Part shown: positions 2,954 through 11,819 of the stretch, in pieces
Layout: the number at the start of each line of letters is the position of its first letter
Position numbering within the stretch: the first letter of the stretch is position 1
Source of the DNA: an uncultured Rikenellaceae bacterium
Lineage (GTDB): Bacteria; Bacteroidota; Bacteroidia; Bacteroidales; Tenuifilaceae
Assembly: GCA_964490015.1 (NCBI GenBank)
Contig: CAZBBA010000102.1
Location: 1-11,819 of the forward strand
Direction: 5' to 3'
Length of the DNA: 11,819 bases
Notes under the pieces: model-generated
The model's input: the letters and a program-made list of their open reading frames with translations, nothing else
Told to the model about the DNA's origin: nothing
Database searches by the model: none
Made by a program: the position numbers and the translations under genes

Positions 2954-3634
2954 ATGGCAGTATTAATTATTTTACTAATTGTGGCAGCATTTATATATTT
3001 TAAGTGGATCAGAGATCCCAAAGAAGTAAGAGATCGCTGCAAAAACAGAAGCGAAGAGCAAAAAAAAGTTATAAGGTACTTTATGAGAGACGGTTGTCTA
3101 GCGCTCGGGCTTTTAAAAGATGAGGAATACGAAGCTTTGGTTGCTAAAAAAATCAAAAGTATGGATTTTAAACAAAAAGCTCTTAACAAAATCGGCCTAG
3201 ATGAGTCAGAACTTCAGGAAATTGAGCCAGTGAGCTTTGAGGGTTATTGGTTTGATGAGAAAAAAACGTTCTCAAAATATGGTAAAGATAAAAAATGGAG
3301 AAGTTCTGCATACCAGATTTCTTGGTTATTCTTTAGTTCCACACAAGTGTATTTATATCAATACACCTTTAATTTGGATGAAGATGGTAAAATGGAAAAA
3401 ACAGAAGAGTATTTCTATAAAGACATTACCAATTTCCAAACTATTTCCGACACCATCGAAACCCCCATTTGGGATCCAAAAAAAGATAAAAGTATTCTTG
3501 TAAATATTGACAAAAACCGCTTTGCAGTTACAGTTCCAGGAGACAAATTCCTCTGTTCCTTGGAACAAAATGATTATACTGAACGAGCTATTCAGGCAAT
3601 GAAAGCAAAATTACGTGAGAAGAAAAATGCCTAA
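2954..3634 (+). CDS. Hypothetical protein with an N-terminal transmembrane anchor; first gene of the low-GC cluster
   Basis: ATG at 2954, 226 aa. The N-terminus MAVLIILLIVAAFIYFKWI is a single hydrophobic helix, followed by a K/E-rich soluble domain with no motif I recognise. The stop at 3632-3634 is 3 nt before the next ATG, suggesting translational coupling. Confidence 0.6.
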   Translation: MAVLIILLIVAAFIYFKWIRDPKEVRDRCKNRSEEQKKVIRYFMRDGCLALGLLKDEEYEALVAKKIKSMDFKQKALNKIGLDESELQEIEPVSFEGYWFDEKKTFSKYGKDKKWRSSAYQISWLFFSSTQVYLYQYTFNLDEDGKMEKTEEYFYKDITNFQTISDTIETPIWDPKKDKSILVNIDKNRFAVTVPGDKFLCSLEQNDYTERAIQAMKAKLREKKNA

Positions 3635-4095: not shown

Positions 4096-5316
4096 ATGGG
4101 AATATTTAATAAAAACCGCACTGACGGTGAAACATTTGATGGACAGGGTGAAGAAAGAAAAGGCCCTATTGATCGAATAAAATACAATGGAGAAAAAGAT
4201 GACCTTGTATGGAAATTTCCATACGATAATCTATCGACTGCTACTGAACTGACCGTAAACTTTAGTCAGGAAGCAGTTTTTGTAAAAGGTGGAGCTATTG
4301 CAGATATTTTTGGCCAGGGTCCACATACTTTAAGTACGAATAATATACCTGTTCTGCAAAAATTGATTAACTTACCTTTTGGTGGAAATACCCCTTTTAC
4401 TGCGGAGGTTTGGTTTGTTAATAAAACAATACGCCGTAACCTTAAATTTGGCACACCCGATCCATTTGATATTTACGACCCTCATTTTGATAACCCTATT
4501 CCTGTGCGTTCATATGGTGAATATGGCATTCAAATAACCGATTCCTCGGCATTCTTGCAGCAAATGGTGGGAACTTTGCACCTTTTTACAACGGAAGACA
4601 TTATTGATCAATTCAAATCATTAGTAGTACAAAAACTTAAAGACTCAATAAGTAAGTTTATTGTGAAAAAAGAGGTTACAGTTGTAAAAATCAATGCCTA
4701 TATTGATGAAGTAGCAAATTATGTTCGAGATGCAATAAATGAAGAATTTGCTCAATACGGTATTCGCATAGCAAGTTTTAATATTGCTTCAATAAGTTAT
4801 GACAAAGAAGATGAAAGGGTTAAGGAAATATTGGCTCAGGATGTTGAATTGAGAAGAGCTAAAACTAAAGCCCAAGAACGTAATGTGCAAGGTTTCACAT
4901 ATCATGACGAGCAAAAATTCGATGTATTGAAAACCGCCGCTGGCAATGAAGGGAGTGCAGGCCAAATGATGGGAGCAGGTATGGGACTTGGAATGGGCTT
5001 TGGTGTAGGAGGCGCATTTGGACAACAAATGGGAAATGTTGCAGGTGCCATGCAGCAACAGCCACAACAACAACAGCAACAACAGCAACAAACCCCACCA
5101 CCACCACCAACAGCAACTGTTTGGTTTGTATTAATAAACAATCAGCAGTATCAATACGACACTAATGCCCTTAGTCAATACATTCAAAGTGGTCAGGTAA
5201 CTCGCGACACATTAGTTTGGAAAGCGGGTATGGCACAATGGCTAAAAGCTAGCGAATGTCCTGAATTACAAGGATTGTTTGGCGCAACTCCGCCACCCCC
5301 ACCACCGAATTTATAA
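4096..5316 (+). CDS. SPFH/Band-7 'virion core protein-like' family protein (YdjI/COG4260-like) with Gly/Met-rich, polyQ and polyP linkers and a C-terminal DUF4339 (GYF-like) domain
   Basis: The N-terminus MGIF...DDLVWKFPYD...SQEAVFVKGGAIADIFGQGPHTLSTNNIPVLQKL...NTPFTAEVWFVN...KFGTPDP follows the pattern of the Bacillus YdjI SPFH family as I recall it (MGIF..TLVWRFP..SQVAVFVNEGQ..DVFGPG...PFKAEVYFVN). The middle contains GAGMGLGMGFGVGGAFGQQMGNVAGAM, then QQQPQQQQQQQQQ, then TPPPPPT. The C-terminus WFVLINNQQYQYDTNALSQYIQSGQVTRDTLVWKAGMAQWLKASECPELQGLF fits the DUF4339/GYF-like consensus (W.....G..GP.....L...G.I...TLVW..GM..W). Confidence 0.8.
   Translation: MGIFNKNRTDGETFDGQGEERKGPIDRIKYNGEKDDLVWKFPYDNLSTATELTVNFSQEAVFVKGGAIADIFGQGPHTLSTNNIPVLQKLINLPFGGNTPFTAEVWFVNKTIRRNLKFGTPDPFDIYDPHFDNPIPVRSYGEYGIQITDSSAFLQQMVGTLHLFTTEDIIDQFKSLVVQKLKDSISKFIVKKEVTVVKINAYIDEVANYVRDAINEEFAQYGIRIASFNIASISYDKEDERVKEILAQDVELRRAKTKAQERNVQGFTYHDEQKFDVLKTAAGNEGSAGQMMGAGMGLGMGFGVGGAFGQQMGNVAGAMQQQPQQQQQQQQQTPPPPPTATVWFVLINNQQYQYDTNALSQYIQSGQVTRDTLVWKAGMAQWLKASECPELQGLFGATPPPPPPNL
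5051..5110 (+). repeat. In-frame trinucleotide microsatellite: (CAA/CAG) x about 13 followed by (CCA) x 5
   Basis: Directly read: cagcaacagccacaacaacaacagcaacaacagcaacaa then accccaccaccaccaccaaca. It encodes the polyQ/polyP linker of the SPFH protein. A second proline tract, ccgccacccccaccaccg, occurs at about 5291-5308. Confidence 0.8.
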
Positions 5317-10650: not shown

Positions 10651-10658
10651 TATATTTG
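10651..10658 (+). promoter_or_regulatory. TATATTTG -7-type promoter element upstream of the 10717 gene
   Basis: It exactly matches the Bacteroidetes -7 consensus TAnnTTTG and lies 58 nt upstream of the ATG at 10717. There is no well-spaced TTTG -33 element, so this is a weak call. Confidence 0.3.
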
Positions 10659-10716: not shown

Positions 10717-11220
10717 ATGGCATCTATAGCGTTAACTTCCAAGAAAACAATAGGCTACGTAATATTCGACATTCTGGCGTTGGCCTTTATATACTTAGTG
10801 CCTACAATTTCGCATATGCTCAGTTTTCCACTCTATTTGATAGAACCCATGCGCATTGCGCTAATCCTTGCGCTGGTGCATACCACCAAGAGAAATGCGT
10901 ACATAATTGCATTATCCCTTCCATTATTCAGCTACTTGGTGTCGGCGCACCCTGTTTTTTACAAGATGTTACTGATTTCGGGCGAGCTGGTGCTGAATGT
11001 ATGGATTTTCTACTTTTTGCTCGGCAAGACTAAAAACGCATTTTTGTCGATTATAGGCTCAATTATTGCCTGCAAAGCCATCTACTATATGGCTAAGTTT
11101 GTAGCTGTTGCCCTAATTTTTAATTCGGGCGAGGGAATTATTTCCACACCGCTTTACATTCAACTTGCAACAACTATTGTGTTTAGCGTGTATCTTGGGT
11201 TGATGTTTAGGAGAAGGTAG
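10717..11220 (+). CDS. Small polytopic membrane protein (about 5 TM helices); possibly an ECF-type substrate-capture (S) component or similar small transporter subunit
   Basis: The track ORF begins at TTG 10666. The first ATG is at 10717 (MASIALTSKKTIGYVIFDILALAFIYLVPTISHM...), giving 167 aa. The protein is almost entirely hydrophobic helices. The family assignment is a guess based on size and topology only. Confidence 0.55.
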   Translation: MASIALTSKKTIGYVIFDILALAFIYLVPTISHMLSFPLYLIEPMRIALILALVHTTKRNAYIIALSLPLFSYLVSAHPVFYKMLLISGELVLNVWIFYFLLGKTKNAFLSIIGSIIACKAIYYMAKFVAVALIFNSGEGIISTPLYIQLATTIVFSVYLGLMFRRR

Positions 11221-11396
11221 AAGACCGAAGACGGAAGTTGGAAGACAGAAGACACCTGCCTCAGCTTGTCTCAGCTTGTCTCGGAAACCGCTGTCCTTTG
11301 CGGTTAACGAGAGGAACCGCTGTCTTTTGGAGGTTAACGAGAGGATGCGGAGCATAAAGAGAGAAGAGAGAAGACAGAAGTTGGAAGTATACTACT
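11221..11396. repeat. Repeat-rich non-coding segment: GAAGAC purine repeats at both ends, a 10-bp tandem duplication (tcagcttgtc x2), and a ~30-bp tandem direct repeat x2
   Basis: Directly read: aagaccgaagacggaagttggaagacagaagaca at 11221-11254; tcagcttgtctcagcttgtc at 11261-11280; gaaaccgctgtcctttgcggttaacgagag at 11284-11313 and gaaccgctgtcttttggaggttaacgagagg at 11314-11344 (about 87% identical, and the first contains the hairpin aaccgc-N8-gcggtt); gagaagagagaagacagaagttggaag at 11361-11387, which repeats gaagacagaag and gaagttggaag from the left end in permuted order. Confidence 0.7.
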
Positions 11397-11442
11397 CACG
11401 GGGTGACTATTTGCTGAGCAGATAGTCACCCCGTGAGTTTTT
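11394..11442 (+). terminator. Strong rho-independent terminator
   Basis: A perfect 14-bp stem, cacggggtgactat / atagtcaccccgtg (extendable to 17 bp: actcacgggg...ccccgtgagt), with an 11-nt loop ttgctgagcag, followed by ttttt at 11438-11442. It is GC-rich (GGGG/CCCC core). It lies 170 nt downstream of the stop at 11220. The reverse-strand downstream context is not T-rich, so it is unidirectional. Confidence 0.8.
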
Positions 11443-11445
11443 ATA

Positions 11446-11600
11446 TGATTTGAAGATTGCCTGCAGTTGTCCGTAGTACCCTGCCAAAGGTCAGGTAAAA
11501 TGGAAGCGTAAATAATTGGATTGATTGGTTGACCTGCCTGCAGGCTGGTTGATTGCCTACCTGCCGGATAGGTAGGGTTGATTGAGCGATTCAAGAATAA
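11446..11600. repeat. Structured intergenic segment with reiterated GGTTGAT(T/C) motifs and short palindromes
   Basis: ggattgattggttgacctgcctgcaggctggttgattgcctacctgccggataggtagggttgattgagcgattc contains ggttgacctgcctgcagg, ggttgattgcctacctgccgg and ggttgattgagcg as direct repeats. It also contains the self-complementary gcctgcaggc and a 7-bp stem hairpin cctacct-gccggat-aggtagg at 11557-11577. Confidence 0.5.
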
Positions 11601-11637
11601 CTTTAAACCCTAAAACCTTAAACGTCAAACTACTCTC

Positions 11638-11819
11638 CTACCCTCCGTTCTCGTCAATCTCCATTAGTTCGAGCCAGCGCTCGCCCTTGGTATCGAGCAG
11701 GTGAATTAATTCTGCAATACGGTTCGATTTGCCTATCAACTCATCGTGGGGTAGGGTTCCGCTGTTGATTACCGATTCTATCTCGGCCTTTTCGTTCTCA
11801 AGGTTTTCAATCTCTTCCG
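11638..11819 (-). CDS. C-terminal end of a convergent gene (5' part beyond the window); coiled-coil tail resembling an ABC-F family ATPase C-terminus
   Basis: The minus-strand frame reads ...EEIENLENEKAEIESVINSGTLPHDELIGKSNRIAELIHLLDTKGERWLELMEIDENGG* with stop TAG at 11640..11638. The ...ERWLEL... coiled-coil ending is typical of ABC-F proteins (from memory). Confidence 0.5.
   Translation of the reverse strand, partial: EEIENLENEKAEIESVINSGTLPHDELIGKSNRIAELIHLLDTKGERWLELMEIDENGG

Follow-up and report, generated by a model that had tools for sequence, protein, structure and literature searches.

Small dispersed repeat (SDR) elements of heterocyst-forming cyanobacteria are reportedly hairpin-forming sequences of tens of nucleotides, often embedded in tandem heptamer arrays and nested in their own copies. 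They are said to be confined to a coherent lineage, with a structure supported by compensatory changes, and no enzyme is known to be responsible for them. The DNA analysed here, a stretch of 11,819 nucleotides from a Tenuifilaceae (Bacteroidales) metagenome genome (hereafter the window), carries members of a hairpin family that is alike in kind: both are tiny dispersed hairpins, array-embedded, nested and lineage-restricted. However, the window family occurs in another phylum (Bacteroidota, Tenuifilaceae), and a sequence relationship is not expected. Its members are somewhat longer (30-43 nt), with an invariant outer stem TCTCG/CGAGA and an unpaired 5' CCTG tag, and the case for their mobility rests on comparison of sites between species and not on within-genome polymorphism. 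The window elements are thus a new hairpin family of an already known kind, namely mini-elements nested in heptamer arrays.

Heptamer arrays are reported to outnumber every other class of long simple repeat in prokaryotes, and polymerase slippage has been named as their cause (Mrazek 2007, as quoted in PMC4679880). Named arrays include the long simple sequence repeats, the cyanobacterial STRR, TAACTGA, and GGGAATC / GGGGAYT (Rehm 2015, PMC4692102). In the work on TAACTGA repeats, assemblages of several heptamers were found in long Bacteroidetes spacers and were lacking in close relatives (MacGregor 2015, PMC4679880). The window shares with such arrays the period of 7, the intergenic location, the mixture of heptamers in one long spacer, the short array-less spacers of close relatives and the unit-step indels. 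It differs in that its unit GAAGACR was not found named, and hairpin elements inside arrays are not described, in the heptamer-array literature examined. The position of the arrays has precedents: heptamer arrays beside stop codons are already known from Xanthomonas, Nostoc and some Bacteroidetes, and heptamer repeats lying 0-50 bp from stop codons, or overlapping them, on the coding strand have been reported (PMC4692102). The stop-codon adjacency of purine arrays is therefore not new, having been reported for other heptamers.

REP, BIME and REPIN elements, which are associated with RAYT (Y1) transposases, also invite comparison, since they and the window family are imperfect palindromes of 20-40 nt, extragenic and often clustered. 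Both are in addition frequent between convergent genes, carry a short conserved unpaired tag at one stem end and show many copies on one strand locally. Nevertheless, a REP assignment was rejected: REP tags are GTAG or CGTC (PMC3733652), whereas all members of the window family carry the tag (G/A)CCTG. REPs are also not typically found in heptamer arrays, nor nested in the order 5'-5'-loop-3'-loop-3', as the window elements are. No RAYT gene linked to the elements was detected in the examined loci, where the only Y1_Tnp gene (L013, 8084-8545; comparison loci are designated by L numbers) belongs to a relative without a covariance-model match. Assignment to MITEs was rejected as well, the units being 30-43 nt long instead of approximately 100-400 bp and the array phase running on without target duplication; a parent insertion sequence did not come to light either. 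Readings as CRISPR, integron attC or retron were set aside on period and architecture.

The earlier note on this DNA had treated the segment as the transcribed tail of one gene. It in fact opens a 417-nt spacer that separates two convergent genes; the features of this region are collected in Table 1. The upstream gene encodes a membrane protein ending in ...GLMFRRR (stop codon TAG, 11218-11220), with 439 homologues, the closest named ones from Tenuifilaceae or Bacteroidales, and it is preceded by a Bacteroidetes-type -7 box, TATATTTG, at 10651. The length and basic C-terminus of this protein are conserved, also in relatives without arrays, so the array has not remodelled its coding sequence; the possibility that the array reshapes the C-terminus was rejected on these grounds. 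The facing gene (stop codon 11638-11640, minus strand) encodes an ABC-F ATPase of 628 aa in the full contig, the complete gene being present in L001. The repeat structure was recovered in two independent assemblies, an ENA contig with 100% identity and a Logan contig with 99.6%, and their agreement speaks strongly against an assembly artefact. The comparisons rest throughout on metagenome assemblies, where repeats may be collapsed or chimeric.

Table 1. Features of the convergent spacer and its flanking genes (positions in the window).
Feature	Position	Strand	Basis
Upstream gene, 167-aa multi-pass membrane protein	10717-11220	+	ORF and start codon; without Pfam family
Left heptamer array, 5 units GAAGACC GAAGACG GAAGTTG GAAGACA GAAGACA	11220-11254	+	TRF period 7, 4.9 copies (11220-11253)
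Three stacked 10-nt 5' half-stems CCTGCCTCAG / CTTGTCTCAG / CTTGTCTCGG	11255-11284	+	TRF period 10, x2.3
Unit 1: inner hairpin AACCGC/GCGGTT and 3' half-stem ACGAGAGG	11285-11314	+	Fold -18.3 kcal/mol, z = -4.0
Unit 2: AACCGCTGTCTTTTGGAGGTTAACGAGAGG, closest match to dispersed consensus AACCGACGCTTTTTGGAGGTTGACGAGA	11315-11344	+	TRF period 30, 90% matches
Unit 3: ATGCGGAGCAT mini-hairpin and degenerate 3' half-stem AAAGAGAG	11345-11364	+	Comparison with L015, L155-L159
Right heptamer array AAAGAGA GAAGAGA GAAGACA GAAGTTG GAAG	11356-11387	+	TRF period 7, 3.4 copies (11357-11380)
Putative intrinsic (Rho-independent) terminator, 21-bp stem, 3-nt loop, T5	11394-11443	+	-38.7 kcal/mol, z = -11.8
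Second array zone, GATTGRT-type units enclosing two small hairpins	11518-11592	+	Repeats D8, D10, I9; fold z = -3.1
Third array, AACYYTA-type units, ending at ABC-F stop codon	11597-11637	+	TRF period 8, x2.8; composition
ABC-F ATPase gene, 3' end	11638-11819	-	Translation; PF16326 ABC_tran_CTD, E = 2e-9

The segment is markedly repetitive. Between 11221 and 11393, 29 repeated 8-mers were counted, against 0.76 ± 1.15 (maximum 8) in 1000 dinucleotide-preserving shuffles, whereas the adjacent coding sequence used as control had 4 against 3.4 in shuffles. The purine repeats that had been seen to bracket the core were borne out; both read in register as period-7 heptamers and constitute one heptamer array, (GAAGACR)n, which starts at the stop codon. 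Its first base is the G of the membrane-protein stop codon TAG, and the right array is the resumption of the left one, its first unit overlapping the 3' half-stem of unit 3. A direct repeat (D1) links the two, with 84% identity over 31 nt between 11214-11244 and 11357-11387, and a further one (D2) was also found. Both arrays consist of head-to-tail 7-nt units, as heptamer simple-sequence arrays do, and lie between the two stop codons. Downstream of the terminator, the second array zone encloses the hairpins CCTGCCTGCAGGCTGG (11533-11548) and CCTACCTGCCGGATAGGTAGG (11556-11576) and is homologous to the (GATTGGTT)n plus CCTGCCTGCC...GGCAGAGG module of the relatives L007 and L014. The third array has 1 G in 41 nt and is therefore C-poor on the ABC-F sense strand; indeed, scarcity of C on the sense strand of the adjoining gene is a general trait of the arrays.

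Arrays of the GAAGACR type are widespread. The array scan found them in many phyla (n = 104), and a sense-strand ORF ended within 60 nt upstream in 54 cases, against 23 for the mirror arrangement. Within 7 nt, the arrays adjoined a sense-strand stop codon in 28 cases against 6, so that this adjacency is approximately 2-5 times commoner than its mirror image.

Inside the array, the core is three nested copies of a hairpin element, 5'-CCTGTCTCG...loop...ACGAGAG-3'. The copies follow the order of three 5' halves and then three units of loop plus 3' half, and for this reason they had appeared as a 10-bp duplication followed by 30-bp units. The duplication is real (CTCAGCTTGT x2.3 at 11260-11282, with 100% matches in TRF), and so are the two 30-bp tandem units (11286-11345, x2.0, 90% matches, score 99), but only the first of these folds well alone, and not each of them as had been proposed. 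The 3' half-stem of unit 1 pairs with the third 5' half-stem, TCTCG at 11279-11283, and a covariance model scores 11274-11313 at 49.4 bits (E = 3e-8), a score that is partly circular because unit 1 of the window is among the 14 members of the model. A single-base change in a 99.6%-identical strain disrupts the inner stem of unit 1. Unit 2 alone folds no better than shuffles (z = +0.66), and a 28-mer of it was found in 9 distinct contexts in a metagenome scan. Comparison with L015 and L155-L159 identifies unit 3 as the loop plus 3' half of the element that appears to be outermost and ancestral. A MAFFT alignment between the window and L015 missed the module structure, and the modules were therefore parsed manually. 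GNRA tetraloops and GNA triloops, both unusually stable motifs, form the inner loops.

The suggestion that the segment might be a miniature repeat element found support, since the core belongs to a dispersed family of approximately 40-nt hairpins. Besides the window locus, the element recurs at at least 12 intergenic sites of Tenuifilaceae-type contigs, detected by covariance model or pattern scan, so that at family level it is not the unconserved single copy that the earlier note had named as the alternative. Overall, regex and covariance-model searches located the element in L003 (five copies in three separate spacers), L004, L015/L155, L136, L140 (two), L142, L143, L145, L146, L148, L151 (two) and L042 (three copies; Tenuifilaceae bacterium BF4_52). 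In the genome of the window itself, a BLASTN search with word size 7 over a 20.5 kb contig segment and the Logan contig yielded self-matches only. Three parts make up each element: the 5' tag with its half-stem, (G/A)CCTGTCTCG; an inner mini-hairpin, which varies; and the 3' half-stem ACGAGAG. Over the 14 sequences compared, pairing in the outer stem amounts to 94%, and this stem hardly varies. In the inner stem, three pairs have changed at both partners, and the observed score was matched by none of 500 shuffles; the sample is small (n = 14), however, and a control slid by -3 also scores high.

The elements are flanked mostly by arrays of 7-9-nt units, often with identical units to left and right that keep a common phase; the exception is L143, with only short low-complexity flanks. 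The flanking arrays vary from site to site (GAAGACR, GTTATCR, GTAATCR, GTGAGTT, GGCTDTT and GTGACWAGA, with GTTATCR being the reverse complement of TAACTGA), and the element is hence more than a component of a single array. Conversely, it was absent from 119 other array-scan loci with GAAGACR arrays, most of them from other taxa. Thus, the hairpin is lineage-specific, whereas the arrays are widespread. The nested order is also recurrent: two 5' halves followed by two units of loop plus 3' half are found in L148, L151 and L143, against three of each in the window. The junction CCTGTCTC|AGCTTGTCTCG of the window recurs at the unrelated L148 and L151, L143 has CTCTGCTTGTCTCG, and CTC|AGCTTGTCTCG is common to the nested copies of all three. 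By comparison, L003 10536-10617 shows two complete 5'-loop-3' copies in succession, as a plain tandem duplication would give. The nested order probably arose by insertion. In co-directional spacers, 5 elements are antisense and 1 sense, and there is no consistent orientation relative to transcription; a sense-strand RNA element as a general property was rejected by this survey.

Comparison of orthologous spacers revealed a rapid turnover of the whole assemblage. The closest relatives (approximately 91% flanking-protein identity) are represented by L015 and the five assemblies L155-L159, which carry only a simple, un-nested GCCTGTCTCG-GGATGCGGAGCATAA-CGAGAG at the site and also differ elsewhere in the spacer; the window keeps the loop and 3' half of this simple element at 11345-11364. 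The number of heptamer units at the orthologous site is five in the window, 8 in L015 and 11 in L155, and L155 has (AACTCTA)x6.4 at the place of the third array. L011, L012 and L013 (63-78% flanking-protein identity) have a spacer of 50-73 nt containing one terminator hairpin; the spacer of L155 measures 270 nt, and those of the window, L003, L007 and L014 range over 417-559 nt. On this distribution, the expansion of the spacer appears to be derived. Where the flanking proteins share 84-91% identity, the orthologous spacers consist of differing arrays and modules. Among near-identical strains, the copy number of (GATTGGTT) is x20.6 in one and x25.6 in another, plus degenerate versions. L003 and L004 agree over 384 nt but for two differences, an exchanged inner loop and an array insertion of 53 nt. 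Among the compared loci, no clean empty site facing an insertion in otherwise identical strains was seen. A GAAGAC-type array with a family hairpin directly after the stop codon is nevertheless kept in three species (window, L155 and L003), a retention that could reflect function rather than inertia.

The segment closes with a very strong hairpin followed by T5, as the earlier note had recognised, although its stem has 21-22 pairs instead of the 14-17 bp given there. The arms span 11394-11415 and 11417-11438, with 11 G-C among 21 base pairs; on the minus strand the fold (-35.4 kcal/mol) is followed by GUAGUA, without a U-tract. The structure is predicted to end the membrane-protein transcript. 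It has in common with Rho-independent terminators the long GC-containing stem, the short loop, the U-tract and the place downstream of a stop codon, but these usually lie a few tens of nucleotides from the stop codon, whereas this one is 173 nt away because the repeat assemblage sits between. The hairpin is absent from the spacer of the closest relative. Taken as a whole, the 225-nt tail has a much more stable fold than its shuffles (z = -6.3), mostly due to the terminator, and the core without it folds no better than shuffles (z = -1.6).

We consider it probable that the segment is non-coding repeat DNA inflating a convergent-gene spacer and composed of an array, three nested hairpins and a conventional terminator. 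The heptamer array (GAAGACR)n, running from the membrane-protein stop codon, would grow and shrink most likely by replication slippage, and three nested copies of the lineage-specific element would have been inserted in it. Since the terminator is predicted to end the transcript, array and elements would most likely be carried passively in the 3' UTR of the membrane protein. The elements may spread, or be copied from site to site, through a process that works on hairpins in single-stranded form and targets both the arrays and the elements' own 5' stem; in the examined loci, no transposase or reverse transcriptase associated with them was identified. The assemblage would be selfish or neutral rather than a gene. 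Against this, the stable inner loops and C-poor sense strands could indicate selection at the RNA level. A bolder proposal, which we regard as rather unlikely, is that the 5'-CCTGTCTCG...ACGAGAG-3' hairpins are the Bacteroidota counterpart of the SDRs: mobile elements of approximately 40 nt with a single-stranded DNA or RNA intermediate, inserting site-specifically into heptamer arrays and their own 5' stem, the arrays being part of the process as target or by-product and not independent products of slippage. If true, an unrecognised enzymatic activity would be common to, or convergent between, two distant phyla, and two long-unexplained features of bacterial spacers would be mechanistically linked.

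A functional structured 3' UTR, modelled on proposals for REP/BIME elements and hairpin clusters, would protect against 3'-5' exonucleases, add termination or insulate the convergent units. Its place fits, directly after the stop codon, before the terminator and between convergent genes, and hairpin clusters have been proposed to induce termination (PMC8355165). The strong fold of the 225-nt tail, to which the terminator contributes most, is consistent with it, as are the retention of array and hairpin in three species, the C-poor sense strands of the arrays and the excess of GAAGACR arrays at sense-strand stop codons at both distances. Yet the assemblage is missing from relatives that get by with one hairpin in a spacer of 50-73 nt, module content is wholly different between species with 84-91% identical flanking proteins, and family members in co-directional spacers are mostly antisense (5 to 1). 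The same-species single-base change that disrupts the inner stem of unit 1, and the fold of the core without the terminator, also argue against such a function, which we hold to be doubtful. A role of the heptamers as protein-binding sites or as a slippage-driven contingency switch for a neighbouring gene, which has been put forward for TAACTGA repeats located ahead of start codons, would account for the hypervariable copy number between strains and has a parallel in L003, where (TAACTGA)n immediately precedes a start codon, as it does in Beggiatoaceae. In the window, however, the arrays are downstream of both genes, with a stop codon at either end, so that unit number cannot alter reading frame, promoter spacing or 5' UTR, and no candidate binding protein was identified; this role is improbable here.

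The notion of a candidate small RNA fared poorly. An independent gene of approximately 170-220 nt, with a promoter of its own inside the stop codon or immediately past it, would explain a strong terminator 173 nt past that codon with structured sequence before it. Nonetheless, an Rfam scan of the whole window (E <= 1) left the spacer without match except for two sub-threshold chance ones on the terminator hairpin, a plastid 3' UTR family and mir-399. The Bacteroidetes -7 motif TAnnTTTG does not occur on either strand between 11100 and 11700, yet one is found at 10651, and a sigma-70-type scan gave no plus-strand site inside the spacer. The spacer sequence is unconserved, the closest relative lacks the terminator hairpin and two nested units, and the family has no consistent orientation. 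A small RNA gene is accordingly very improbable. Still less credible is that the segment represents minus-strand coding sequence or an assembly artefact: ORFs of 80 and 86 aa do exist (11113-11355 and 11334-11594), and similar ones are called in the arrays of relatives, but neither matches Pfam, in keeping with their earlier dismissal as probably non-coding. Moreover, the first overlaps the conserved end of the membrane-protein gene, the module-sized indels of relatives preserve no reading frame, and the two assemblies agree.

On the preferred reading of repeat DNA in a convergent spacer, Tenuifilaceae would be a second lineage, far from cyanobacteria, with tiny hairpins nested in heptamer arrays, which suggests that the association of hairpins and arrays is general and not a cyanobacterial oddity. 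The covariance model allows the responsible enzyme to be searched for by phylogenetic profiling. The comparison of spacers also indicates that a compact bidirectional terminator region of 50-73 nt can grow approximately eight-fold within a family while gene order stays fixed. In practical terms, repeat-laden spacers of this kind break metagenome assemblies, can pass for small RNAs or CRISPR-like features and attract false ORF calls; gene callers place unsupported ORFs of 121-140 aa, similar to those of the window, through the arrays of its relatives.

The 220 nt that the earlier note had singled out as a repeat-laden tail are the first part of a 417-nt spacer separating two stop codons, since the membrane-protein gene upstream is faced by a convergent minus-strand gene for an ABC-F ATPase, which the note had missed. 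The window matches ENA metagenome contig ERZ17914141 NODE_296 (72 kb), and the ABC-F gene is complete (628 aa) in L001, the 20.5 kb surrounding the gene. The spacer is 99.6% identical in a second, independent Logan assembly, and the nearest named homologues of the membrane protein are from Tenuifilaceae, Perlabentimonas, and other Bacteroidales MAGs. The best-supported reading is that a heptamer slippage array starts at the stop codon of the membrane-protein gene, that a mini hairpin element specific to Tenuifilaceae lies nested within it in three copies, that a conventional intrinsic terminator follows the array, and that the second and third array/hairpin zones belong to the ABC-F side.

Features of the spacer and its flanking genes, in window coordinates
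Feature	Position	Strand	Details
167-aa membrane protein gene	10717-11220	+	no Pfam family
Left array	11220-11254	+	GAAGACC GAAGACG GAAGTTG GAAGACA GAAGACA; starts at G of TAG stop
Three 10-nt 5' half-stems	11255-11284	+	CCTGCCTCAG / CTTGTCTCAG / CTTGTCTCGG (parse of insert)
Loop + 3' half-stem, unit 1	11285-11314	+	AAACCGCTGTCCTTTGCGGTTAACGAGAGG (parse of insert)
Loop + 3' half-stem, unit 2	11315-11344	+	AACCGCTGTCTTTTGGAGGTTAACGAGAGG (parse of insert)
Loop + 3' half-stem, unit 3	11345-11364	+	ATGCGGAGCATAAAGAGAGA (parse of insert)
Right array, resuming left	11356-11387	+	AAAGAGA GAAGAGA GAAGACA GAAGTTG GAAG (in-register reading)
Predicted intrinsic terminator hairpin	11394-11443	+	21 bp, -38.7 kcal/mol, z = -11.8, then U5
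Second array zone	11518-11592		GATTGRT units enclosing two small hairpins starting CCTGCC or CCTACC
Third array	11597-11637		AACYYTA, 1 G in 41 nt, ends at ABC-F stop codon
ABC-F ATPase, 3' end	stop 11638-11640	-	last 59 codons; PF16326, E = 2e-9

All repeats previously listed were recovered by repeat search and TRF. Segment 11221-11393 contains 29 repeated 8-mers, compared with 0.76 ± 1.15 (maximum 8) in 1000 dinucleotide-preserving shuffles, and the adjoining coding sequence is unremarkable (4 versus 3.4 in shuffles). The terminal hairpin proved as strong as proposed and is followed by T5, but its stem is longer than the 14-17 bp first given; on the minus strand it folds without a U-tract. 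Each 30-bp unit had been said to fold by itself, which holds for the first (z = -4.0) but not for the second (z = +0.66), and in the 99.6% identical strain a one-base change (GCGGTT to GAGGTT) disrupts the fold of the first.

Read in register, the purine repeats described as bracketing the core form a single heptamer array. The order within the insert, three 5' half-stems followed by three loops with 3' half-stems, is that expected if a single hairpin element were nested in copies of itself, and not if whole elements had been duplicated in tandem. The rest of the spacer (11518-11637) is likewise modular and, in the species with a complete spacer that were compared, each array is poor in C on the sense strand of the convergent gene next to it.

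The hairpin element belongs to a dispersed family. A 13-kb stretch of L003, a comparison locus from a relative, has it in three separate spacers, and L042 (Tenuifilaceae bacterium BF4_52) has three copies within GTGACWAGA arrays. A metagenome-wide scan with a window-type 28-mer, AACCGNNGNNNTTTN{2,3}GGTTRACGAGA, returned 19 stretches, among which 9 distinct loci carry GCCTGTCTCG(T/G)-(A/G)AACCGACGCTTTTTGGAGGTT(G/A)ACGAGA. Approximately 5 of the stretches match by chance in unrelated coding or other DNA, close to the number estimated from the information content of the pattern. Eight of these nine lie inside arrays, and the ninth, L143, has short low-complexity flanks only. Array units differ between scan loci: GAAGACR (L136), GTTATCR (L137/L144), GTGAGTT (L140), GTAATCR (L142, L145, L148, L151), and GGCTDTT (L146). 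Nesting as in the window, with an identical CCTGTCTC|AGCTTGTCTCG junction, was found in L148, L151, and L143. A covariance model trained on 14 simple members, the window's first unit among them, gave a score of 49.4 bits (E = 3e-8) for the window element. Among the loci searched, hits were confined to those of Tenuifilaceae type, with none in 119 other GAAGACR-array loci from an array scan, most of them from other taxa.

Family members share an almost invariant outer stem, TCTCG(T)/(A)CGAGA, and have an inner stem whose variants appear compensated (GTGGC/GCCAC, CAGCC/GGCTG, TTGGT/GCCGA, AACCGC/GCGGTT). Three pairs of the inner stem are changed on both sides, and none of 500 shuffles attained the score obtained, in a small sample where one slid control was also high. 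In members with a short loop, the loop is a GNRA tetraloop (CGAAAG and CGCAAG in L003, CGTAAG in L151) or a GNA triloop (GCGGAGC both in the window and in L155, GCGAAGC in L148); as single-strand hairpin motifs, both types are exceptionally stable in RNA and DNA alike.

The same gene pair was fetched from relatives and grouped by flanking-protein identity. At 63-78% identity (L011, L012, L013) the spacer measures 50-73 nt and consists of one long hairpin plus a T-run; it reaches 449-559 nt at 82-84% (L007-L010, L014), 494 nt at 84% (L003), and 270 nt at approximately 91% (L015, L155-L159). The L155-type spacer consists of (GAAGACG/GAAGTTT)x11, a simple hairpin GCCTGTCTCG-GGATGCGGAGCATAA-CGAGAG, (GAAGTCG/GAGACAG)x7.6, a second hairpin type GCCTGCCCGAC...GGCGGGG, and (AACTCTA)x6.4 reaching the ABC-F stop codon. 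In L003, GGAAGAC/GGAAGTA units precede two tandem copies of CCTGTCTCGT-CTACCGAAAGGTTG-ACGAGAG, GTCAGTT/GGTGATCGGT arrays flank a third copy, whose loop differs, and GACTTTT units follow, while L007-L010 and L014 show (GATTGGTT)x20-26, CCTGCCTGCC-GCAAA-GGCAGAGG, and (TGAGTGAT)x4-6. Spacer sizes and module content thus mark the long spacer as a derived expansion in one subclade, rebuilt from different modules in each species. Of the simple element of L155 type, the window retains the loop and the 3' half (GATGCGGAGCATAAAGAGAG); the two AACCG-type units, together with a 5' half-stem for each, may therefore be read as later additions nested inside that element.

The segment had also been proposed as a small RNA. 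No Rfam family matched in the spacer and no Bacteroidetes -7 box was found in 11100-11700, one being present at 10651, upstream of the membrane-protein gene. Of six family members in co-directional spacers, five are antisense to transcription, which argues against a sense-RNA function of the family; speculatively, and on numbers this small, the bias would be consistent with orientation following replication. Membership among REP/BIME elements was rejected on the tag, which is CCTG versus GTAG or CGTC (PMC3733652). The more distant relative L013 has a 153-aa Y1 transposase gene (PF01797; 8084-8545, minus strand) between Fer4 and DUF362 genes, and no element of the family was detected at that locus. 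The overlapping minus-strand ORFs, doubted from the outset, found no coding support in Pfam. Gene callers also placed 121-140-aa minus-strand ORFs across arrays in L009 (10433-10855), L014 (10512-10907), and L005 (7083-7448); they have no Pfam hits and are probably false calls, probably because the array sequence lacks stop codons.

Heptamer arrays themselves are a general phenomenon. A scan for GAAGACRGAAGACRGAAGAC, with one genome per species, gave at least 120 matches, those listed including many Bacteroidales families, Planctomycetota, Acidobacteriota, Gallionella, Ignavibacteria, Omnitrophota, Nitrospirota, cyanobacteria, and Streptomyces. Of 104 listed GAAGACR arrays whose flanks were long enough, 54 have a sense ORF (100 codons or more) that ends at most 60 nt upstream (mirror configuration, 23), and in 28 it ends at most 7 nt upstream (mirror, 6). 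In 11, the stop codon is where the purine run starts, which is also the arrangement in the window. Such stop-codon adjacency is already known from Xanthomonas and Nostoc, where the heptamers are GGGAATC and GGGGAYT (PMC4692102). Long Bacteroidetes spacers holding "assemblages" of mixed heptamers, absent from close relatives and with indels in 7-nt steps, have also been described, in a paper that summarises Mrazek's explanation by slippage as well (MacGregor, 2015; PMC4679880). L003 (2340-2398) contains (GTTATCA)x8.4, the reverse complement of (TAACTGA)n. For a minus-strand ABC ATPase gene, the sense strand carries (TAACTGA)x8.4 directly upstream of the start codon, and the hairpin element follows, after which the array resumes; the TAACTGA array is exactly the pattern reported for Beggiatoaceae and a few Bacteroidetes (MacGregor, 2015; PMC4679880). 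Many Bacteroidales spacers (L016-L135) mix GAAGACR with other 7-13-nt arrays, such as GTTGAAAA/GTTGAAGA, GGTAGAA, and CCTGAGCCCTTTG.

The closest described analogue of nested hairpins in heptamer arrays is provided by the cyanobacterial SDR elements, which Elhai reportedly described in 2008 as embedded and nested in such arrays. The hairpin element is read as a new family of an already known kind of repeat, with which the association of mini-elements with arrays extends to a second phylum.

Array copy number varies between near-identical strains. L003 (12886-13269) and L004 (7194-7630), which encode an identical membrane protein, have a neighbouring spacer identical over 384 nt, except for a cassette-like 18-nt inner-loop swap (AGTGGCGTTTTTTGCCAC versus TCAACCGTTATTTGGCTG) and a 53-nt array insertion, which looks like copy-to-copy recombination, though chimerism in the metagenome assemblies may also account for it. 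Elsewhere in L003, approximately 150 nt of array plus hairpin (GGTGATCGGTAGTT units, GACTTTT x3.4, CTTCGGCAAGCA x1.9) are duplicated in the spacers either side of the ABC-F gene (10790-10940 and 13046-13200), forming direct repeats that flank a housekeeping gene. An intergenic motif, approximately GACCCTTCGGCAAGC(A/T)C...CTCAGGGCA, recurs in L003 (10905-10950, 13165-13215, 2455-2490) and L007 (13110-13150), and a related one, TTCGCTAAAGCTACGG, is common to L030 and L091; both look like further dispersed repeat families. In L012 (Perlabentimonas), the ABC-F gene was not called because of a 100-nt N run (10741-10840) flanked by a duplicated 40-nt sequence. Within the window, a 226-aa ORF (2954-3634, no Pfam family), which a YidD-domain gene follows, is preceded at a distance of 19 nt by a DUF805b RNA motif (RF02914; 2895-2935, plus strand; 43.6 bits, E = 8e-10, gathering score 35.6). 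Finally, a CAA/CAG-rich run at 5056-5117 (plus strand; TRF period 3 x12, also periods 9 and 15) in an SPFH/GYF-domain gene (4096-5316) probably encodes a Gln-rich linker.
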